From a virus (taxonomy: Duplodnaviria > Heunggongvirae > Uroviricota > Caudoviricetes): a stretch of DNA of 39,225 nucleotides. Each line of letters begins with the position of its first letter. Within the stretch, counting starts at the first letter, position 1. Positions 2,127 through 33,231 of the stretch are shown piece by piece. Below the pieces are notes generated by a model that worked only from the letters and a program-made list of their open reading frames with translations, was not told the DNA's origin and made no database searches. A program made the position numbers and the translations under genes. The DNA lies in IMG/VR virus record IMGVR_UViG_2574180019_000004, positions 1-39,225 of that record. The stretch is one strand, 5' to 3'.

Positions 2127-2773
2127 GCTGCACGCTCCCGCCCCTGGTTGTCTATTGGTGACACCGGAGCATTGCTGAATGCATTTGTTAATCCGCCAAT
2201 ATCCAACGCGTATCCAGGGTGTAGTTGCACTGCCGGGTCTTCGCACTGATTACCCCAAACATCGAAGCCATGAGACGTCTGGCGGGCGAACAGTTCAATG
2301 CGAGAAACATCGCCTAACAATTGCACAAGTTTTTCACGAACGATATCTGGTTTTCTTGAGTGCTCAAGCCGCGGTGCGGTAAATGACTGAACGATCCCTG
2401 CATTAATGCGCGTAGGTAGTTTTCCCTTTACCGCAAACAGGCAATCTTCACTATTGGCGCGAGTCATGTGTCCCATACCCATAACCAGTTTATCTGGTTG
2501 TCGACTACCACATTTTATCCACGTGAAGCCCTTCATCGTCATCAGACGAAATCCCCAGGCTTCAACAACTTTTAGTGCTTCGAGTGGTTGTGTTGGCACC
2601 CACCACATGGCCAACAGACAGTTTTCAGCGGTCAAATCCCACACAGGAAGGCGGCAGATATCCAGCACACTCATAACTGGATATTTAAAACCGGCACCGC
2701 GATTACCATCTGCGGCTTTGTCCCGGTATACCCAGGGTGGATCTGCATAGATTAGTGTGTATTTCTTAGTCAT
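2123..2773 (-). CDS. DNA N6-adenine methyltransferase (MT-A70-like, orphan)
   Basis: DPPW catalytic motif near N-terminus ([16 protein letters not shown]); no adjacent restriction endonuclease ORF; translationally coupled to phosphatase gene. Confidence 0.85.
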
Positions 2774-3017
2774 AAACCACCCCACAACATCTTATGCCGC
2801 TATAGTCGCCACGGCGAAGGCCGTTACCTTTTGTGATACATTGGTCCCTGCGAACCGCGATCCTTGCACGTTCAACATCACCAGAAGCAACATCCATACA
2901 CTGAAGCCAAAGGTGAGCGGCAATGCGGAACTGCCCTTTTTTCTCTCTTTCAATCGCGCGTTTTTCGATCTCTATCGCCGCAGGAGTAACGGCGACAATC
3001 TTTGACGGACTGCGCAT
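2766..3017 (-). CDS. Hypothetical early protein (83 aa from ATG at 3017)
   Basis: ORF in leftward operon; AAGGT 5 nt upstream of ATG 3017; no recognisable motif; start uncertain. Confidence 0.4.
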   Translation of the reverse strand: MRSPSKIVAVTPAAIEIEKRAIEREKKGQFRIAAHLWLQCMDVASGDVERARIAVRRDQCITKGNGLRRGDYSGIRCCGVVYD

Positions 3018-3174
3018 TGAAACCTTATTCATGTGATATTTTTCAAGTCGGCTTAACTTTCTCACTTAATCCAACCCTCTCTGAAAATTAATGTCAGCAG
3101 ATAAAGCCATGCTGAAACAGAGGCCAGGAATAAGTACCATCCTGACCATTTGCTCCAGTGCCTTAGCAGCGCAC

Positions 3175-5623: not shown

Positions 5624-5642
5624 AATTTGTTACCTCGGTCTG

Positions 5643-5776: not shown

Positions 5777-6361
5777 TTATTGTTTGTTTTTTTCGTTCTG
5801 GTTGATGACAAATTCAATGTAACTTTCGATCTTTGCTTTCTCGGTTTCGGGTAACAATGCGTAGCGCGAGCGGTCATAGTTGATGGTCGCAGGGTCGTGC
5901 GGGTGAATCAGTAATTCATAGCCGTGACGCCCGAATGCGGATGCAACATTCTCCAGGGTGGAAATGGAAACGCTGACCTCATTGTTTAACAGGCGGCTGA
6001 TTGTCACCTGGGCGACGCCGGATGCGCGGTGAAGTTTTCCCTGCGTTGAAAGGTCGCGGCTTTCGCTCATCCAGCGTTCCAGGTTGTGAGCCGCCAGTTG
6101 ACCAATGTCGCTTGGTCCGACAGGCTGAAAACCTTCCTGAGAAAGCGAGCGATCGATATCAAGCCAGTTACGGGGTTTATTGGCGGCAGCTTCAATTTTT
6201 CGCGCAACCTGGTCGCCGATAACCTTCTTGCCAAGAGCCCAGCGGTTTACCAGATTTGCCTGAGTTCCAAGTTTTTCTGCCATCCGCGTCTGAACACCAT
6301 TGAATTCACGGTCGATCAAGTCGTTGAGATTTTGCCTGCGGACGTCCTGGATACTTTTCAT
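5777..6361 (-). CDS. Prophage repressor, tandem HTH (XRE-like), no obvious autocleavage domain
   Basis: 194 aa; two HTH-like segments (around LGTQANLVNRWALGKK and SGVAQVTISRLLNNEVSVSISTLENVA); flanked on both sides by the recurring palindrome; divergent from Cro-like gene. Confidence 0.7.
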   Translation of the reverse strand: MKSIQDVRRQNLNDLIDREFNGVQTRMAEKLGTQANLVNRWALGKKVIGDQVARKIEAAANKPRNWLDIDRSLSQEGFQPVGPSDIGQLAAHNLERWMSESRDLSTQGKLHRASGVAQVTISRLLNNEVSVSISTLENVASAFGRHGYELLIHPHDPATINYDRSRYALLPETEKAKIESYIEFVINQNEKNKQ

Positions 6362-6515: not shown

Positions 6516-6746
6516 ATGAGCGATAACGGACATTTCGATTTCAAAAAGCACTGGCTTGCACTTACTCCGGATGAGCGTGAAGCCTTCGCACAGGAAGCCG
6601 GAACGACGAGTCACTATATCCAGACTCACTTAACAGGTAAGCGCAAAATGCCAGGTAAAGTATTGATGAATGGGCTTTTTAAAGCCTGTAAATCAAGACA
6701 ATGGTTGCGCTCAAAAGCAGAACTGGCATACTTCTTCTACTCATGA
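6516..6746 (+). CDS. Cro-like small DNA-binding regulator
   Basis: 76-aa basic protein divergent from repressor; HTH-like segment EAGTTSHYIQTHLTGKRKMPGKVL. Confidence 0.6.
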   Translation: MSDNGHFDFKKHWLALTPDEREAFAQEAGTTSHYIQTHLTGKRKMPGKVLMNGLFKACKSRQWLRSKAELAYFFYS

Positions 6747-6767: not shown

Positions 6768-6791
6768 AGACCGCCATCCGGCGGTCTTTTC
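6768..6791 (+). terminator. Rho-independent terminator after cro-like gene (tR1-like position)
   Basis: agaccgcc-atcc-ggcggtct followed by tttt. Confidence 0.65.
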
Positions 6792-7112: not shown

Positions 7113-7928
7113 ATGAGCAGACATGCAACAGATTGGGCCTGGGAGACAGATCCAGGTAGCTCGTCATTAAAGCTCATACTGCTCTCGATGGCTGACAGAG
7201 CCGATGAATATAACCTCTGCTACCCCAGCATAGAACGCCTCGTTAAAGACACTTGCCTGAATAAAAAAACCGTGCAGGCCGGGCTTATATCGCTCATGAA
7301 AATGGGGCTTATTTCAGATACCGGAGAGAGAAAGGGAGCGACGAAAAGAGTGCGGGTTTTCTCTCTTAATATAACCAAAAACGGGAACATTAAAGGCAAC
7401 CGGGAAGGGAGCAATGAACCCGAAAACGGTAATGTTACCGAAAACGGGAATATACCCAAAAACGGGATGTTGAATGATCCCAAAAACGGGATGTTGAATG
7501 ATCCCAAAAACGGGATCCAGAACCAGTCATATAACCAGTCATTTAACCAAGAGAGGGAGAGCAGGACAAAAAGCGGGGATTCTGTGCCTCATGACCCCGG
7601 CGCAAACAACGCCGTGATGAATAACTTTGTTCCTCCTGGTGGGCCAGGGCAATTAGGCAAATTTGTCATGCATGAACAATGGCAGCCATCAGATGACTTT
7701 CTTCGGAAAAGCTCCTTGCAGGGGATCTACCTGGACAGTCTGCCAACGGCACAGGAACTTGCAGAGTTCAGAATTTACTGGATGGCTGAGGGTAAGGCAT
7801 ACCATCAGGCACAGTGGGAGCAGAAGCTGGCAAGGCGGCTGCAGATTAGCAGACAGAAGCAATCAACATTACCTGATAACAACGTTCCGCACTGGAACAG
7901 CCCTGAAGCGTGGGAGGATTTCTTGTGA
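7113..7928 (+). CDS. Replication initiator (lambda O-like) containing internal iterons
   Basis: N-terminal winged-helix-like region (LKLILLSMADRADEY...TVQAGLISLMKMGLI); internal ENGN/KNGM repeats encoded by DNA iterons; followed by P-like gene with GTGA overlap. Confidence 0.65.
   Translation: MSRHATDWAWETDPGSSSLKLILLSMADRADEYNLCYPSIERLVKDTCLNKKTVQAGLISLMKMGLISDTGERKGATKRVRVFSLNITKNGNIKGNREGSNEPENGNVTENGNIPKNGMLNDPKNGMLNDPKNGIQNQSYNQSFNQERESRTKSGDSVPHDPGANNAVMNNFVPPGGPGQLGKFVMHEQWQPSDDFLRKSSLQGIYLDSLPTAQELAEFRIYWMAEGKAYHQAQWEQKLARRLQISRQKQSTLPDNNVPHWNSPEAWEDFL
7374..7517. repeat. Iteron array (candidate origin of replication) inside O-like gene
   Basis: Six copies of CCnAAAACGG(G/T)AA at 7374, 7419, 7438, 7455, 7479, 7503, including perfect 24-bp tandem cccaaaaacgggatgttgaatgat x2; followed by direct repeat aaccagtcat(a/t)taacc. 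Confidence 0.7.
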
Positions 7929-11575: not shown

Positions 11576-11832
11576 TGGATGTAAAAGAGAAGGTTTTGCA
11601 GGTGATGCGTTCCCGGGCTGCCCTGCAAGATAAAGCTCTCGGCGGGGAATATCCATTCAGGATGGCAACCTGGAATCTGCGGTTGGCAATGGAGAAGGAA
11701 TTTCCTGATGAAGAATGGCGTTCGGCAGATTTGCGCAAAATTCTTATGGAGCTGGCTAAAGACGGAACAGTATCCAAAGATACCCATGCCAGCCGGATTG
11801 GTCAGGCGGTATGGAGACTGGAGGTGAGGTAA
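11572..11832 (+). CDS. Hypothetical protein (86 aa)
   Basis: ATGA overlap with upstream stop; AGGAGG RBS. Confidence 0.5.
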   Translation: MMDVKEKVLQVMRSRAALQDKALGGEYPFRMATWNLRLAMEKEFPDEEWRSADLRKILMELAKDGTVSKDTHASRIGQAVWRLEVR

Positions 11833-12113
11833 TGGCTAACCTGCAACTTGCCGTTAAAGGTGAATACTTCGATGCCATGATTCGAGGGGAGAAAACGGAA
11901 GAGTATCGCCTGTGTAATGACTACTGGAATAAGCGCCTCGTTAACCGTAAGTATGACCGCCTGATTATCACAAAGGGATATCCGAAGCGCGAAGACTTCA
12001 GTCGCAGAATTGACGTCCCGTATAACGGATATGAAATAAAAACAATCACACATCCACACTTCGGTGATAAACCGGTAAAGGTGTTCGCGATAAAGGTAAA
12101 TATTGATGGCTAA
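11832..12113 (+). CDS. ASCH/PUA-like small protein
   Basis: 93 aa MANLQLAVKGEYFDAMIRGEKTEEYRL...; fold assignment from memory, unverified. Confidence 0.45.
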   Translation: MANLQLAVKGEYFDAMIRGEKTEEYRLCNDYWNKRLVNRKYDRLIITKGYPKREDFSRRIDVPYNGYEIKTITHPHFGDKPVKVFAIKVNIDG

Positions 12114-12444
12114 ATCAGCAGCAGAGCGCAAAGCCGCTCAGAGAGCCAGACAAGCTGCATCTGGTGTGCGTAAGCTGGAGATTGTGCTTGATGCTCAGGA
12201 AATTGAAATGCTGGAGCGTAACTGTGCCACACGTCGCCCCGGGCGTGCGCCTTACGAATTTGGTGAGTATATAGCGTTACTGATCCGCCAGGATGATGCA
12301 CGCGTGCGCGGGCATATAAAATCGATCAGCAGAAAACGTTGCGGTAAGTGCGGCGAGAGAGTTCCAGTTAATTCATGCCCGTGTAATGGTGACTCGCAAT
12401 GCTGGGTGACTAAAGGCTGGCATGAAACGAAATTAATAGTGTGA
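12106..12444 (+). CDS. Zinc-finger protein, candidate late-gene regulator
   Basis: C-terminal CGKCGERVPVNSCPCNGDSQC; last gene before terminator/operator/terS; stop codon lies inside GTGACATGTCAC palindrome. Confidence 0.5.
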   Translation: MAKSAAERKAAQRARQAASGVRKLEIVLDAQEIEMLERNCATRRPGRAPYEFGEYIALLIRQDDARVRGHIKSISRKRCGKCGERVPVNSCPCNGDSQCWVTKGWHETKLIV

Positions 12445-12452
12445 CATGTCAC
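12441..12452. repeat. Palindrome GTGACATGTCAC (copy 1 of 3)
   Basis: Exact 12-bp palindrome; terminator hairpin follows at 12494. Confidence 0.6.
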
Positions 12453-12493
12453 GAGTAGATTATGCATGATGAATTTGATGTGTTTTGAATACT

Positions 12494-12519
12494 GCCGCCA
12501 ACTATGGCGGCTTTATTTT
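12494..12519 (+). terminator. Rho-independent terminator upstream of terS
   Basis: gccgcc-aactat-ggcggc followed by tttatttt. Confidence 0.6.
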
Positions 12520-12530
12520 GCATGTTACTA

Positions 12531-12563
12531 TTACCACAACGGTAACTATTACCACGGTGGTTA
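12531..12563. promoter_or_regulatory. Operator palindromes immediately upstream of terS
   Basis: Perfect TTACCacaacGGTAA 12531-12545 and imperfect TTACCacggtGGTtA 12549-12563. Confidence 0.55.
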
Positions 12564-12565
12564 TG

Positions 12566-13159
12566 ATGCCTGCTGAACCTAAAACCTATAAACGCAAATC
12601 AACGCAATTTAAGCCACTAACAGCAATGCAGGAGGCTTATTGCCAGTCATACATCAAAACGCCTGAAAACCAGACTCAGGCAGCGATTAACGCAGGATTC
12701 TCCCCAAATACAGCGGCAGTTAAAGCCAGTGTCATGATGCGCGATGAACGCATTCAAAAACGGATTGCCGAGTTGATGGAGGAGCGCAACAAACGAATGC
12801 GCGTCAGTGCTGATTACGTTCTCATGCGCCTGGTGGAGATCGACCAGATGGACGTGATCGACATCCTCAACGACGATGGGAGCCTTAAACCAATCCGTGA
12901 GTGGCCGAAAATCTGGCGCACTACGCTTAGTGGCTTTGATCTGTCATCGACCATCATGAACATGAACGAGGATTCGATAGAGACAATCCTCAAAAAAATT
13001 AAATGGCCTGACAAGGTGAAGAACCTTGAGCTGATTGGTAAGCATGTTGATGTCAACGCGTTCAAAGAACGTCTGGATGTTAATGTGAATGTGACAATTG
13101 CTGATCGCATAGCAGCAGCCAGGAAGAGACTGAAAGAACGTCAGGATGGCAATAAGTGA
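12566..13159 (+). CDS. terS: Terminase small subunit
   Basis: Conserved TerS-like region AYCQSYIKTPENQTQAAINAGFSPNTAAVKASVMMRD; directly upstream of and overlapping terL; N-terminal part of the tracked ORF treated as non-coding. Confidence 0.8.
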   Translation: MPAEPKTYKRKSTQFKPLTAMQEAYCQSYIKTPENQTQAAINAGFSPNTAAVKASVMMRDERIQKRIAELMEERNKRMRVSADYVLMRLVEIDQMDVIDILNDDGSLKPIREWPKIWRTTLSGFDLSSTIMNMNEDSIETILKKIKWPDKVKNLELIGKHVDVNAFKERLDVNVNVTIADRIAAARKRLKERQDGNK

Positions 13160-14631
13160 CAGATACAGCGTTATCTCCTGAAGATCAGTTAATCGAGGAT
13201 ATTGCAGGGTTCACTCACGATCCGCTTGGCTATGCCCTCTATGCGTTCCCGTGGGGGGAAGAGGGTACTGAACTGGCACATGCCACCGGTCCACGTCAGT
13301 GGCAGGCCGATGCGTTCCGAGAGATACGTGATCACCTGCAGAATCCAGAGACGCGCTATCAGCCGCTTATGCTGGCACGCGCTTCTGGTCACGGTATTGG
13401 TAAATCCGCATTCATCTCAATGCTGATCAACTGGGGCATGTCCACTTGCGAGGATTGTAAGGTCGTGGTGACCGCCAACACCGACAACCAGCTACGAACG
13501 AAGACCTGGCCGGAAATTATCAAGTGGTCGAACCTTGCTATCACGAAAGAGTGGTTTACCTGTACCGCTACCGCGATGTACAGCAATGACCCTGGGCACG
13601 ACAAGCGGTGGCGAGCTGACGCAATCCCCTGGTCTGAGCACAACACTGAGGCATTCGCCGGACTACACAACGAGCGAAAACGCATCATCGTGGTATTCGA
13701 TGAAGCGTCGAACATTGCGGATCTGGTGTGGGAAGTTGCTGAGGGTGCGCTTACGGACGAAGACACTGAGATTATCTGGGTGGCGTTCGGAAACCCTACA
13801 CGTAACACCGGACGTTTCCGCGAATGTTTCCGCAAATATAAACACCGCTGGAAAACTGCGCAGATTGACAGCCGAACGGTGGAAGGCACTAACAAACAGC
13901 AGTTGCAGAAATGGGTTGATGACTACGGGGAAGACAGCGACTTCGTTAAAATCCGTGTGCGCGGCATATTCCCTGATGCATCTGAATTGCAGTTTATCCC
14001 TACCGGTCTTACTGATGAGGCAATGAAACGGGTGGTAACCGCTGCGCAGGTGGCGCATGCTCCGGTGATAATCGGTGTTGACCCGGCATATTCAGGCGTT
14101 GATGACGCGGTGATATACCTGCGGCAGGGGCTACACAGTAAGGTGCTGTGGACTGGCAACAAGACTACCGACGATCTGATTATGGCGAAGCGTATCGCTG
14201 ACTTTGAAGACCAGTATCAGGCTGACGCGGTGTTCATCGACTTCGGTTACGGAACCGGTCTGAAGTCAATCGGTGACGGATGGGGTCGTACATGGCAACT
14301 TGTTCCGTTCGGTGGCGCGTCTACTGACCCGCAGATGCTCAACAAGCGTGGGGAGATGTTCAATTCATGCAAGACATGGCTGAGGCTGGGCGGCATGCTG
14401 GATGACCAGGAAACAGCAGACGACCTGTCGGCGGCAGAGTACAAAGTTCGAGTGGATGGTAAAATCGTTATCGAACCGAAGGAAGATATCAAGGAGCGGA
14501 TTGGGCGTTCGCCGGGTAAAGGCGATGCGCTACTGCTGACGTTTGCGTTCCCTGTGTCTAAGCGTCTGCAAATTCCCGGGCAGCAGAACCAGCAAGGCAA
14601 GGCCATCACAGATTACGATCCCTATGCTTAA
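13156..14631 (+). CDS. terL: Terminase large subunit
   Basis: Walker A-like ASGHGIGKSAF and Walker B-like IIVVFDEAS; GTGA overlap with terS stop. Confidence 0.85.
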   Translation: MTDTALSPEDQLIEDIAGFTHDPLGYALYAFPWGEEGTELAHATGPRQWQADAFREIRDHLQNPETRYQPLMLARASGHGIGKSAFISMLINWGMSTCEDCKVVVTANTDNQLRTKTWPEIIKWSNLAITKEWFTCTATAMYSNDPGHDKRWRADAIPWSEHNTEAFAGLHNERKRIIVVFDEASNIADLVWEVAEGALTDEDTEIIWVAFGNPTRNTGRFRECFRKYKHRWKTAQIDSRTVEGTNKQQLQKWVDDYGEDSDFVKIRVRGIFPDASELQFIPTGLTDEAMKRVVTAAQVAHAPVIIGVDPAYSGVDDAVIYLRQGLHSKVLWTGNKTTDDLIMAKRIADFEDQYQADAVFIDFGYGTGLKSIGDGWGRTWQLVPFGGASTDPQMLNKRGEMFNSCKTWLRLGGMLDDQETADDLSAAEYKVRVDGKIVIEPKEDIKERIGRSPGKGDALLLTFAFPVSKRLQIPGQQNQQGKAITDYDPYA

Positions 14632-14671: not shown

Positions 14672-14705
14672 GATAAAACAAAGCCAGCTCATCGGCTGGC
14701 TGTTT
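14672..14705. terminator. Bidirectional intrinsic terminator between terL and convergent moron gene
   Basis: gccagc-tcatcg-gctggc with A-run upstream and tgtttg downstream. Confidence 0.6.
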
Positions 14706-14717
14706 GTGACATGTCAC
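14706..14717. repeat. Palindrome GTGACATGTCAC (copy 2 of 3)
   Basis: Exact copy immediately after the terminator hairpin. Confidence 0.6.
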
Positions 14718-14721
14718 GGTG

Positions 14722-15096
14722 TTATTGCTCGCTTAGCTTCTGCTTCAGCAAGTAACCTTCGAGCATCCAGATTTTGTTTACAGCATTCTGCCGGGCAATC
14801 TTCCTACCAATTTCTGCATCAAAGTTTTCCGGGCTTGCACAGGCACTCTCTCCGGTAACGGTGAAGCCATTCTTCAGTACCAATACGCAGAAAGTGAGAA
14901 GGTGCAGAGCATCAGGGGTGGCTTCGACATAAGGCTCCGGATTATAAATAAGGTCATCTTCTTTAGCCTGGTGGTCACCCTGCGCAGCAGTGAAAAAATG
15001 CTCACTGCAAATGAGGCCTTCAATTTTCTCGGGTGTTACACGCGGTGCCGTTTTGCCTTTCTCAACGATTTCTTTTTCGATTTGCTGGTCGTTCAT
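14722..15096 (-). CDS. Hypothetical protein (moron, opposite strand to packaging/head genes)
   Basis: 124-aa ORF with strong RBS AAGGTGAG 4 nt before ATG; co-oriented with tRNA; no motif recognised. Confidence 0.6.
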   Translation of the reverse strand: MNDQQIEKEIVEKGKTAPRVTPEKIEGLICSEHFFTAAQGDHQAKEDDLIYNPEPYVEATPDALHLLTFCVLVLKNGFTVTGESACASPENFDAEIGRKIARQNAVNKIWMLEGYLLKQKLSEQ

Positions 15097-15207: not shown

Positions 15208-15251
15208 GTAAAAAGGGCGGTGATAGTCCTTCAAGGGAACCATCACCGCCA
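15208..15251 (-). terminator. Candidate terminator downstream of tRNA
   Basis: gggcggtgat ... atcaccgcc 9-bp stem with 17-nt loop, followed on minus strand by UUUU. Confidence 0.45.
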
Positions 15252-15293: not shown

Positions 15294-15370
15294 TGGCGTG
15301 GCATGCAGGATTCGAACCTGCGACCAACCGCTTAGAAGGCGGTTGCTCTGTCCGACTGAGCTAATGCCAC
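15294..15370 (-). tRNA. tRNA-Arg (anticodon UCU)
   Basis: Minus-strand 77-nt cloverleaf folded by hand: acceptor GTGGCAT/ATGCCAC, D-stem GCTC/GAGC, anticodon stem ACCGC/GCGGT with loop CTTCTAA, T-arm GCAGG-TTCGAAT-CCTGC, discriminator G, encoded CCA. Confidence 0.9.
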
Positions 15371-18703: not shown

Positions 18704-19690
18704 ATGGCTGTTAAAGGCTTAACTGCGCTAACGCTGGCTGACTGGGGTAAGCGCGTCGATCCAAACGGGAAAGTCGATAAGATTATCGAGCTTCTCGGTC
18801 AAACTAACCCGATCCTTCAGGATATGCCTTTTGTCGAAGGGAACCTTCCTACCGGACACCGAACCACCATTCGTTCTGGTTTACCTTCAGCTACCTGGCG
18901 TTTGCTGAACTATGGCGTACAGCCAAGCAAATCAACCACAGTGCAGGTAACCGATTCCGTTGGCATGCTGGAAACCTATGCTGAAGTCGATAAGTCACTG
19001 GCTGATCTGAACGGTAATACCGCCGAATTCCGCCTGTCTGAAGACCGCGCATTTATTGAAGCGATGAATCAGCAGATGGCGCAGACACTGTTTTATGGTG
19101 ATTCCAGCGTTAACCCTCAGCAGTTTATGGGACTGTCCTCCCGCTATTCCAGCCTGTCTGCGGGTAATGCTCAGAACATCATTGATGCTGGTGGCACGGG
19201 TACAGATAACACCTCAATCTGGTTAGTGGTGTGGGGCGAAAACACCGTGCATGGCATCTTCCCGAAAGGGCAGAAGGCTGGCATCCAGATGGAAGATAAA
19301 GGCCAGGTGACACTGGAAGATGCGAATGGCGGCAAGTACGAAGGCTACCGTACCCATTACAAATGGGACAACGGACTTGCTCTGCGTGACTGGCGTTATG
19401 TTGTTCGCATTGCAAACATCGATGTCAGCAATCTTTCAGAACCTTCCTCTGCCGCAAATATTGCGAAGTTGATGGTTAAAGCACTGCATCGCATTCCAAA
19501 TCGTGGCATGGGTCGCCCGGTGTTCTACATGAACCGCACTGTAGGCCAGGCTCTTGATCTGCAATCTCTGGAGAAAACATCTCTGGCGATCAGCGTAAAA
19601 GAGACAGAAGGCGAGTGGTGGACTTCATTCCGTGGTGTACCAATCCGTGAAACTGATGCGCTTCTGGAAACAGAAGCCCGCGTGGTGTAA
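18704..19690 (+). CDS. Major capsid protein
   Basis: 329 aa following scaffold gene with strong RBS GAGGAA; size and position typical; followed downstream by a terminator as after T7 gene 10. Confidence 0.7.
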   Translation: MAVKGLTALTLADWGKRVDPNGKVDKIIELLGQTNPILQDMPFVEGNLPTGHRTTIRSGLPSATWRLLNYGVQPSKSTTVQVTDSVGMLETYAEVDKSLADLNGNTAEFRLSEDRAFIEAMNQQMAQTLFYGDSSVNPQQFMGLSSRYSSLSAGNAQNIIDAGGTGTDNTSIWLVVWGENTVHGIFPKGQKAGIQMEDKGQVTLEDANGGKYEGYRTHYKWDNGLALRDWRYVVRIANIDVSNLSEPSSAANIAKLMVKALHRIPNRGMGRPVFYMNRTVGQALDLQSLEKTSLAISVKETEGEWWTSFRGVPIRETDALLETEARVV

Positions 19691-20541: not shown

Positions 20542-20563
20542 AAGGGGCTTCGGCCCCTTTATT
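20542..20563 (+). terminator. Rho-independent terminator within structural region
   Basis: aggggc-ttcg-gcccc followed by tttatt. Confidence 0.65.
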
Positions 20564-31792: not shown

Positions 31793-32206
31793 ATGAAGGA
31801 ATTATTGCTGTTATCGGTATTTTTGATATCCGCTTGCTCGACATCCTATGATGTTTATGACGGTGTTGATAAGGCATATTGCGACAAAGTTAAAATGGAT
31901 TTTTCTCTTGCCAAGACGGCGAAGGATAGTTGTATTGATCACTACGTCAAGACTTATACCAAGCCAGCATCATCGGCATCTGATATTGCTGAAGGTGCTG
32001 TGTTTGAGTGTAACAAGGTGATATCCATCGCAGCGAGTTCTTCATACGATGCTGCTGTATGTGCAATGGCTGAAAGAAACGGCATGTCAGTGCAAAAAGT
32101 TAATAGCATGATAAACAGTAATGACGAAGCCAAAATAAGAACTGATATCAGCTCGGTGAAAAAAGATGCCATGAACAGAGTTGTAAAATATCAGTCATCT
32201 TTATAA
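31793..32206 (+). CDS. Lipoprotein (moron; candidate superinfection-exclusion factor)
   Basis: Signal peptide with lipobox MKELLLLSVFLISAC-S; 137 aa; followed by palindrome and terminator. Confidence 0.7.
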   Translation: MKELLLLSVFLISACSTSYDVYDGVDKAYCDKVKMDFSLAKTAKDSCIDHYVKTYTKPASSASDIAEGAVFECNKVISIAASSSYDAAVCAMAERNGMSVQKVNSMINSNDEAKIRTDISSVKKDAMNRVVKYQSSL

Positions 32207-32207
32207 G

Positions 32208-32219
32208 TCGTGACATGTC
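32208..32219. repeat. Palindrome GTGACATGTCAC (copy 3 of 3)
   Basis: Exact copy, immediately followed by terminator hairpin. Confidence 0.6.
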
Positions 32220-32243
32220 ACAGGCCGCAAAAGCGGCCTTGTT
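32220..32243 (+). terminator. Rho-independent terminator after lipoprotein gene
   Basis: aggccgc-aaaa-gcggcct followed by tgtttt. Confidence 0.65.
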
Positions 32244-32263
32244 TTAACGAATGCCACCGCCCG

Positions 32264-32950
32264 TCAGAAGAACCCTGCTTTGTCGTTGATGTACTCCGCG
32301 TGCGTCTGGATATCACGCAGGCATTTGTTCACACCGACGATGTAGCAGAACATGGTGGTCAACTCCGCCGCCGCGCCCGATACGTCGTGCCCGTCTTCCT
32401 GTAACTGGTTCAGCAGATTCATCAGCAGTGAGTTCTCCGTCAGGCCGAGAACACCAGACGGCGAGTGAATCAGACTGCGGTAGCCGGGCTTTAGTGGGGC
32501 GCTGTAGGTTTTGTTCTCTATCTTCATTGCCTGCATCACTGCTGATGCTGTGGCGTTGGCTACCTGGTCGGCAACCATCTTTATGCGTTCTTCTTGCGGG
32601 AGCGAGTTTTTAATGTAACTTCCGGTGCGGCGGATCTGAGGAAGAACCTCACCTGTAACCCATTTACGAAAGCGGTATGGGATAGTGCCTGGTGTCACCG
32701 CATCGCGGCAGCGGAGGATCAGTGTGTAGAGGCCTGACTCGTTGATAATATTGGTTTCGCCTTGACGGCCTAAGTTAAATTTAGCCCTTTCATCATCATC
32801 AAGAGATTTTATTGACATAGTGGGGTTTGTCAGTTGAAGAGCTTTAATAACGTCTTTGGCAACAAACCAAGGATTTCCATCAATAACAATGGCTCGAATG
32901 GTTGCTTCTGATTCAAAATGAAAAACAGATGGGGTTACGTTAGCAGTCAT
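32264..32950 (-). CDS. Bro-N domain antirepressor-like protein
   Basis: Start at internal ATG (MTANVTPSVFHFESEATIRAIVIDGNPWFVAKDV = Bro-N signature) with RBS AAGGTGA; C-terminal approx 70 aa paralogous to the small gene at 34096-34353. Confidence 0.75.
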   Translation of the reverse strand: MTANVTPSVFHFESEATIRAIVIDGNPWFVAKDVIKALQLTNPTMSIKSLDDDERAKFNLGRQGETNIINESGLYTLILRCRDAVTPGTIPYRFRKWVTGEVLPQIRRTGSYIKNSLPQEERIKMVADQVANATASAVMQAMKIENKTYSAPLKPGYRSLIHSPSGVLGLTENSLLMNLLNQLQEDGHDVSGAAAELTTMFCYIVGVNKCLRDIQTHAEYINDKAGFF

Positions 32951-33231
32951 AGTGATCACCTTTGTAGTTAGGTTAATCACCACTACCGACGCCAATCGGT
33001 TGGTGGTGAACTGTGCAGGGTTGGCGTAACCGGCTACAAAGGACCCGGCGCACCTTTCGGTGCCCCCACACAGCCCACCATAGAATAGGTGCGCTTTACA
33101 CATAAAAAAACCGCTTATGCGGCATATGTGCCTCTGTAGTAATCCGGGACGCCAATCCCGGCACTGGATTTTGCCAGTGCCCGATTACTATGGCACAAGA
33201 GGAGTGCGATGTAAATTTACCGTAAAGGTAA
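32951..33231 (-). promoter_or_regulatory. Structured 5' leader / candidate small RNA upstream of Bro-N antirepressor
   Basis: Hairpin 32977-33009 (12-bp stem, loop ACGCCAAT); complementary TTGGCGT at 33021-33027; hairpin 33050-33063; terminator-like ccgc-ttat-gcgg + A-run (33104-33122); three-helix element 33136-33191 with loop ACGCCAAT again; candidate -35 TTGATT / -10 TATCAT on minus strand. Confidence 0.4.

Follow-up and report, generated by a model that had tools for sequence, protein, structure and literature searches.

How is the border between the early genes and the packaging genes of a temperate phage laid out, and what might act there? The question is raised by a stretch of 39,225 nucleotides from the IMG/VR record IMGVR_UViG_2574180019_000004 (hereafter the window), the nearly complete genome of a temperate epsilon15/phiV10-like podophage (genus Uetakevirus) and here a prophage. 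An earlier note on this DNA had pointed to a small gene ahead of the terminase genes, and to a control region behind it with a palindrome, a terminator and two operators, and had likened the arrangement to the Q/qut/tR' module of lambdoid phages. We arrive at a different picture, in which the early-right operon and the packaging operon (terS-terL) would meet in this region, and the junction would be made of separable elements. The last early gene would make a ribbon-helix-helix (RHH) DNA-binding protein with the cognate site GTGAC-NN-GTCAC; one such site overlaps the gene's own stop codon, and two others end the terS-terL unit and the structural operon. The bound protein would act as a transcription boundary, a terminator would end early-right transcription, and a promoter controlled by the prophage repressor would serve terS. 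Taken as a whole, this account seems to us on balance probable, though not by much.

The palindrome that had been noticed, GTGACATGTCAC, is indeed there (coordinates of all features are collected in Table 1). Its general form, GTGACNNGTCAC, has three copies in the window, where shuffled sequences predict 0.05, and the half-sites GTGAC and GTCAC are found there with a spacer of 2 and with no other spacer length. Each of the three sites adjoins an intrinsic terminator; site 2 also lies 5 nt from the stop of a convergent gene (14722-15096). The 12-mer is exact and syntenic at all three places in phage PAS61, in an E15-like Salmonella phage and in Tyrion, although the sequences flanking it have diverged; in Tyrion the third copy is divided between the two ends of the record. 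At site 1 the codon before the stop may be GTG, ATG, CTG or GCG. This last codon thus varies yet always keeps the G of the site, which argues for selection acting on the DNA. The 12-mer has no match in the searchable literature.

Is the pattern found beyond this genus? GTGAC-NN-GTCAC and a gene of the family phrog_536, to which the last early gene belongs, occur together in about eight or nine phage lineages, among them epsilon15-like, N15-like, Mu-like, P2-like, ZF40, Vibrio and Aeromonas phages, usually with three sites per genome; the hosts are Escherichia, Klebsiella, Pectobacterium, Vibrio and Aeromonas. The offset of the site from the homologue's stop is constant in 74 Uetake-like loci and in 51 of 51 N15-like loci, and the central dinucleotide varies. 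Distant homologues with 30-37% identity (phiKO2, ZF40, Vibrio phages) also carry the motif: in the N15-like phage phiKO2 it reads GTGACTGGTCAC and overlaps the gp45 stop, in Pectobacterium phage ZF40 it lies 2 nt past the homologue's stop, and in the Vibrio phages about 230 nt downstream of it. The whole genomes of phiKO2, ZF40 and Vibrio K308 have exactly three spacer-2 sites each. A P2-like Yersinia phage holds one exact and one near-exact copy, and an Aeromonas phage uses a consistent variant, GTGACCGGACAC, four times, once 13 nt before the ATG of its own homologue.

The surroundings of the sites differ among these lineages and include operon ends and the interior of early genes. Most of the 21 Mu-like loci have two sites in the transposase gene and one inside the 3' end of the homologue itself, and repA and cII likewise contain sites within coding regions. 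Others stand in intercistronic DNA, 0-7 nt before a Shine-Dalgarno sequence, namely those of phiKO2 gp46, of a 70-codon open reading frame (ORF70) in a 313-nt Uetake variant, of Vibrio K308 terS and one other gene, and of three Aeromonas genes including that of the regulator. The spacer is kept throughout: 340 kb of genomes that carry the gene contain 18 sites with spacer 2, against 0-1 for each other spacer between 0 and 6 (a single one with spacer 3). The genomes of lambda and Mu, both of which are without phrog_536, have no GTGAC-NN-GTCAC site at all. Copy counts, synteny and co-occurrence with the gene all point to one thing: the palindrome is probably the cognate site of the protein.

One could object that the palindrome belongs to something else, such as a packaging (pac) signal, a host-factor site or part of a terminator, and that its linkage to the gene is incidental. 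Two of the sites flank terS-terL, one in Vibrio K308 lies 19 nt before the terS ATG, and the records of Tyrion and phiV10 open within or beside the palindrome. Tyrion DNA, however, is circularly permuted (PMC5754475), and the ends of its record are therefore a matter of convention. Moreover, the linkage persists across different packaging systems and hosts, Aeromonas has a co-varying site variant, lambda and Mu lack the site, and its spacing is unlike that of CRP sites. We consider an incidental linkage highly improbable.

More specific roles for the palindrome were tried and rejected. CRP sites read TGTGA-N6-TCACA, a different spacing. A cos or pac role does not agree with circularly permuted DNA in Tyrion, with three copies or with the presence of the site in phages that package by other systems. 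A promoter starting at site 1 (GTGACA-18-CATGAT, 12441-12470) is not conserved; what follows site 1 is a spacer left over from a deleted gene, and a -10 element is missing at sites 2 and 3.

What kind of protein would read such a site? The ORF is, as had been stated, the last early-right gene, ahead of terS. It ends at 12444, can start at TTG 12103 or ATG 12106, and overlaps with its start the stop of an ASCH-like gene upstream. Homologues begin with MAKS or MAKT, so that the ATG and a length of 112 residues are most likely. Of the 113-residue protein with a C-terminal Cys-rich zinc finger that had been described, the ORF and the conserved cysteines are thus retained, and the length would be one residue less. 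The protein matches the PHROG profile phrog_536 over residues 1-111 of 112 (E 1.1e-54), as does the Mu-like homologue (E 6e-32). This family is catalogued as 'transcriptional regulator', its members being otherwise labelled 'hypothetical', and it is of modest size: among 1.8 billion representatives, its members form 151 clusters at 50% identity. Neither the protein nor any of 57 diverse members matched a Pfam family. All of these 57 homologues share C79 and C82, C99 is kept in at least 90% of them and another cysteine falls at 90-92; what is conserved is one CxxC with two single cysteines, and a second CxxC pair is not kept.

Structure prediction had been proposed as a check. A confident AlphaFold2 monomer model from the 57-member alignment (pLDDT 92.5) consists of a basic helix (5-19), an extended segment (20-29), two helices (30-42 and 52-75), a Cys knuckle (78-99) and a short helix of nine residues (100-108). 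The beta-alpha-alpha arrangement with an N-terminal strand is that of RHH proteins (CopG/Arc/MetJ), so the predicted fold is RHH plus a Cys knuckle. Searches of BFVD and of the PDB with Foldseek gave nothing beyond the RHH fold. Profile matches to RHH families stay below threshold (RHH_5 in 2 of the 57 members, RHH_1 in one), and the NCBIfam model of the LexA-regulated protein YbfE matches weakly (E 0.05). In a profile search of PDB sequences the best matches, weak ones, for residues 48-109 are TraR and YbiI (E 0.016-0.025), and hhalign gives a probability of 67% against TraR, which we treat as a lead only; the DksA/TraR family PF01258 is matched by none of the 57 members. Judged from these sequence and model features, the protein is a probable sequence-specific DNA-binding regulator.

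Downstream of site 1 the control region continues with a spacer and a terminator. The latter is present as described, with a strong hairpin and a T tract: GCCGCC-AACTAT-GGCGGC forms a 7-bp stem with six GC pairs, followed by TTTATTTT; PAT1, the E15-like phage and Tyrion have kept this stem. The terminator is absent from BUCT554 and from Klebsiella phage phi3.2, where a umuD-like moron has been inserted. The spacer is variable; a 70-aa ORF occupies its position in 24 related loci, and the window retains the 3' end of this ORF (...GATGAATTTGATG..TTTTGA). Among relatives 25-41 nt separate palindrome and terminator, and more than 250 nt where genes have been inserted. The moron of BUCT554 (locus L008, 2783-2850) and of the Klebsiella phage, in full ST11-OXA245phi3.2 (locus L009, 3283-3345), sits between the palindrome and the terS operators and has its own promoter (TTGACT-17-TATACT/TGTACT), overlapped by a canonical LexA box, TACTGTTTAAAT(G/A)TACAGTA (TACTGT-N8-ACAGTA). 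Two further terminators had been named. The one after cro is borne out at 6768-6787; at the one after the capsid block (20542-20563) a hairpin, GGGGCUUCGGCCCC, does precede UUUAUUG, but the 46-nt stretch folds weakly (z -1.2) and does not appear in the consensus scan.

Could the protein be a late switch that lets RNA polymerase pass these terminators? It would then be the late regulator of the genus, binding the palindrome, engaging the polymerase and permitting read-through at 12494, 14682-14701 and 32223-32245 into the packaging and structural genes. That the gene is the last early one before terS fits this idea, as does the fact that all three sites adjoin intrinsic terminators in four Uetakeviruses. 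Among the early proteins scanned, none proved to be homologous to Q, N, Ogr or Mor/C, and the C-terminal half has the weak likeness, given above, to the polymerase-binding finger of TraR and YbiI. A termination or antitermination role at the three terminator-adjacent sites of this genus is possible. The variable distance between palindrome and terminator, however, and the complete absence of the terminator from two relatives speak against this idea; furthermore, a conserved promoter-like element of terS and the repressor operators lie downstream of the terminator, and no family member matched PF01258 or a Q family.

A second line of evidence comes from phages in which the late activator is recognisable. 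The Q-like protein of phiKO2 is a different gene, gp38; in the Mu-like lineage a late activator of the Mor/C type (phrog_836) coexists with the homologue; and in a P2-like phage with a homologue a small regulator gene occupies the place of Ogr. In these phages the sites are remote from the late operon, and some of them fall within coding regions. Because the module coexists with genes annotated as late activators, or placed like them, it is not a generic late switch. The order of elements in the window is gene, palindrome, terminator and then promoter with operators, the palindrome overlapping a stop codon instead of lying in a late promoter. This order, the inserted genes and the coexistence with Q and Mor/C make the Q-like model weak, and we judge it unlikely. 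The likeness to Q/qut/tR' that the earlier note had drawn is thus for the most part not borne out, the operators being moreover of the immunity type. From its candidate late-gene regulator there remains the last early gene with a palindrome, encoding a probable DNA-binding regulator; the late-switch role finds little support. Neither Pfam nor NCBIfam revealed homology to the Q families.

What, then, would drive the packaging genes? The two operator palindromes that had been placed before terS are real, but should rather be seen as a pair of 17-bp hyphenated inverted repeats lying side by side (O1 and O2), which can also be read as a 14-nt direct repeat; the Shine-Dalgarno sequence of terS, GGTGG, is at 12556-12560. 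Genome-wide, ATTACC-N5-GGTAAT with at most two mismatches yields 30 strand-hits against 3.6 expected, and PAS61, the E15-like phage and Tyrion show the pattern at syntenic places. The operators at 5642/5704 and 6416/6464 flank the repressor gene and overlap a PL-like (TTGACA-17-AATTAT) and a PR-like promoter (TTGTTA-17-TATTAT); further ones precede the genes for resolvase, integrase and tailspike, the head block and the ant region, and two stand before terS. Since the same motif flanks the repressor gene and overlaps the PL- and PR-like promoters, it is, on this placement, the immunity operator of the phage. Matches to ATTACC/GGTAAT in the literature are all unrelated to this phage group. An operator stands before nearly every transcription unit, also beyond the immunity region.

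The presumed binder of these operators is the prophage repressor, with a YdaS-like domain at residues 21-61 and an HTH_3 domain at 106-147; one repressor protein might read both half-sites. As it has no S24 domain, induction presumably proceeds via an antirepressor (PMC9782041). In ZX5, which is 97% identical to the window over the stretch from regulator to terS, holin and endolysin transcripts fell by more than 99.9% when the repressor was overexpressed; this study, the sole experimental paper on a close relative, covers repressor, antirepressor and integrase (PMC9782041). In the window, the antirepressor gene (32264-33103) is of the BRO-N/Ant type. Rfam models place a C4 antisense RNA (79.5 bits) and the Hfq-binding RNA isrK (76.8 bits) at 32999-33180 on the minus strand, upstream of and overlapping the start of this gene, and the immunity operators at 33216 and 33309 lie just upstream of that region. 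Such small-RNA control resembles that of P1/P7 immI.

After the terminator, immediately ahead of O1 and overlapped by it, lies TGTTACTAT, a putative extended -10 element. TGnTAnnAT-TACC is kept in six divergent relatives (TL-2011b, PAT1, the E15-like phage, Tyrion, BUCT554 and Klebsiella phi3.2), and TGnTAnnAT is retained even in the terminator-less BUCT554 and phi3.2; in close relatives the n position varies and the TG and the hexamer are kept. The -10 hexamer of the PL-like promoter stands in the same register to ATTACC. From this conservation and the shared register we infer that an extended -10 promoter drives terS-terL, with start site and leader covered by O1 and O2. As the two operators overlap this promoter, the prophage repressor and/or Cro would control the packaging operon directly, as would be the case for at least five further transcription units of this genome, while the terminator upstream would end early-right transcription.

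Which role would be left for the RHH protein at its own sites? RHH proteins are mostly repressors. Dimers may bind the half-sites GTGAC and GTCAC, and the bound protein would be a repressor of the roadblock or boundary type that limits transcription across the site: a bound pair of dimers would block an elongating polymerase and, beside a terminator, sharpen termination in both directions. In this genus the roadblock would reinforce the terminators at operon ends. With modest confidence, such a boundary role is our preferred guess, and DNA bridging the main alternative.

Several points weigh against this account. Sites 2 and 3 have no gene start downstream, and in other lineages the site is often just upstream of a Shine-Dalgarno sequence, so a single mechanism may not cover all sites. 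The terS promoter is called from four of six hexamer positions, the TG and conservation only. Furthermore, no other late activator was recognised in this genome apart from a PerC-like protein and a gene annotated as AlpA family, an annotation that comes from relatives; a late role of the 112-aa protein in this genus is possible.

The sites close to ribosome-binding sites suggest a role at the RNA level, in which the palindrome would be a translational operator and the protein would repress translation of the next gene. The positions in phiKO2, the 313-nt Uetake variant, Vibrio K308 and Aeromonas (0-7 nt before the Shine-Dalgarno) are what such an operator would require. But the hairpin that the palindrome could form is negligible (dG -2.9 kcal/mol, z -0.1), which makes the idea unlikely, and the Aeromonas variant disrupts the stem. 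Sites 2 and 3 of the window lie at convergent gene ends with no gene start near, others are within transposase, repA and cII, and RHH proteins bind double-stranded DNA. We regard translational control as quite unlikely.

DNA bridging was considered because the half-sites are identical to those of matS, the site of the host protein MatP (GTGAC[AG]N[TC]GTCAC, PMC3603311), with a spacer of 2 instead of 3. In this alternative, dimers would bridge the three palindromes into loops, or would interfere with host MatP, MukBEF or division, and any effect on transcription would be secondary. That eight or nine lineages have about three sites scattered over each genome, several of them in coding regions, is indeed reminiscent of matS. 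On the other side, hhalign gives a probability of 0.7% against E. coli MatP, so that homology was rejected; the model has neither a four-helix bundle nor a C-terminal coiled coil and ends in the Cys knuckle; and a spacer of strictly 2 implies a different geometry. Prophages avoid true matS (PMC3603311), and the window has none. We hold bridging to be improbable, and the boundary role remains the one we prefer. Vibrio phage K308 has one true 13-bp matS-type sequence, GTGACACCGTCAC, at 19491 (locus L148) besides its three 12-bp sites.

Table 1. Features of the window around the early/packaging junction and at related places, in window coordinates.
Feature	Position	Strand	Remarks
Prophage repressor	5777..6361	-	two HTH domains, no S24 peptidase domain
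cro	6516..6746
Last early-right gene	12106..12444	+	112-aa predicted RHH protein with C-terminal Cys knuckle; phrog_536
Palindrome site 1	12441..12452		GTGACATGTCAC; overlaps TGA stop of 112-aa gene (12442-12444)
Variable spacer	12453..12493	+	remnant of deleted small gene
Intrinsic terminator	12494..12519	+	closes early-right operon; dG -18.7 kcal/mol, z -4.7
Putative extended -10 for terS-terL	12523..12531	+	TGT TACTAT; from conservation; overlapped by O1
Immunity-type operator O1	12530..12546		ATTACCACAACGGTAAC; overlaps -10 element and expected start site
Immunity-type operator O2	12548..12564		ATTACCACGGTGGTTAT; covers terS Shine-Dalgarno and first two ATG bases
terS, small terminase subunit	12563..13159	+	ATG at 12563; Terminase_2 E 1e-29; phrog_51
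terL, large terminase subunit	13156..14631	+	from ORF list; so annotated in related phages
Bidirectional terminator hairpin	14682..14701		between terL and convergent gene, beside site 2
Palindrome site 2	14706..14717		5 nt past bidirectional terminator behind terL
Palindrome site 3	32210..32221		just past last structural-operon gene (31793-32206), 1 nt before terminator hairpin
Terminator beside site 3	32223..32245	+	GGCCGC-AAAA-GCGGCC and TTGTTTT; conserved in E15-like phage, Tyrion
17-bp operators (at least 13)	150, 5642, 5704, 6416, 6464, 8747, 8809, 12530, 12548, 15692, 33216, 33309, 34429

Along the genome the order is integrase, leftward early genes, repressor, cro, replication genes, nin-like genes, the 112-aa ORF, terS, terL, head, tail, tailspike and lysis. 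Over 11800-13200 the window is 96-97% identical to vB_EcoP_PAS61 and to the O157 typing phages 9 and 10, and TL-2011b, ZX5 and phiV10 are also close in this stretch. The PerC-family activator homologue is encoded at 2766-3065 on the minus strand, in the leftward early operon; apart from the 112-aa protein, it alone can be recognised in the genome as a candidate activator. Possible origin iterons are two tandem copies of TGGGATCATTCAACATCCCG with a run of Ts behind them (7463-7506, minus strand), within the replication-initiator gene (7113-7928). The moron region that separates terL from the head genes contains a tRNA-Arg with anticodon TCT (15294-15370, minus strand), adjoined by a long hairpin (15216-15250). 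PADLOC gave no match to a defence system, and Rfam none in the region around the 112-aa gene and terS.

What could be gained from this picture? The family phrog_536 is catalogued already, and its site and three-site rule appear not to have been described yet. A widespread protein labelled 'transcriptional regulator' or 'hypothetical' would gain a directly testable DNA target, and the copy rule, about three sites with one at the gene's own 3' end, spans podo-, sipho- and myoviruses as well as integrative, transposable and linear-plasmid lifestyles. One may suspect, though with considerable doubt, that the gene and its triads of 12-bp sites form an undescribed module in diverse temperate phages, either a transcription boundary, possibly touching RNA polymerase via a TraR-like finger, or a chromosome folder of the MatP/matS kind using near-matS sites that host MatP should not read. 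As the half-sites are those of host matS, do phages copy the terminus-organising system of the host or deliberately avoid it? The epsilon15/phiV10-like phages serve as reporter and typing phages, and for them the operators carry a further message: packaging, head, tailspike and lysis units each have immunity operators, so that the prophage repressor may itself keep the late genes silent, with no dedicated late activator to switch them on.

How does this compare with known systems? With Q/qut/tR' of lambda the region shares a small Cys-containing protein encoded last before the late genes and a terminator between early and late regions. It differs in that there is no Q homology, that the terminator precedes the promoter (in lambda the promoter comes first), and that the palindrome is outside the promoter, at a variable distance from the terminator; in N15-like phages the module even coexists with a genuine Q.

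For the immunity operators the closest parallel is mycobacteriophage L5, whose repressor gp71 binds 'stoperators' scattered in short intergenic regions, including some before late operons. The ATTACC-N5-GGTAAT sites are likewise scattered through the genome and also stand in front of late operons. Unlike stoperators, they number only about 13, have the symmetry of hyphenated 17-bp repeats and mostly lie on promoter-like elements, and are not orientation-dependent or placed within operons. For the related L1 repressor, multi-site operators have been described (PMC1934351).

The C4 fingers of DksA and TraR, which bind in the secondary channel of RNA polymerase, resemble the C-terminal half in having a long helix followed by CxxCGxx(L/I)P...G...C, and gave the best, if weak, PDB profile matches. 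The pattern that defines their family, CxxC-N17-CxxC, is not conserved here in its second CxxC, nor is PF01258 matched. In addition, the helix belongs to the predicted RHH dimer core and therefore could not enter the channel as that of TraR does.

Among RHH proteins, omega of plasmid pSM19035 recognises 7-bp heptads, WATCACW, in direct or inverted pairs, and Arc and Mnt are the RHH repressors of P22 immI. All are small RHH dimers that use short repeats about 7 bp apart and regulate several separate units, and the phage half-sites resemble the heptads of omega (TGTCAC versus ATCAC). The 112-aa protein differs by its N-terminal basic helix and C-terminal Cys knuckle, and instead of arrays in promoters it would have single palindromes, at gene ends or within genes, as its sites.

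There is, further, a likeness to MatP/matS, the organiser of the Ter macrodomain in E. coli, which also combines an RHH protein with the half-sites GTGAC and GTCAC in few, dispersed, palindromic sites that lie partly in genes. There the site has 13 bp (GTGACRNYGTCAC, consensus from PMC3603311) and here 12, and the phage protein, without detectable homology, replaces four-helix bundle and coiled coil by a Cys knuckle. In contrast to the host system, this one is encoded by the phage itself and has about three sites per 35-50 kb.

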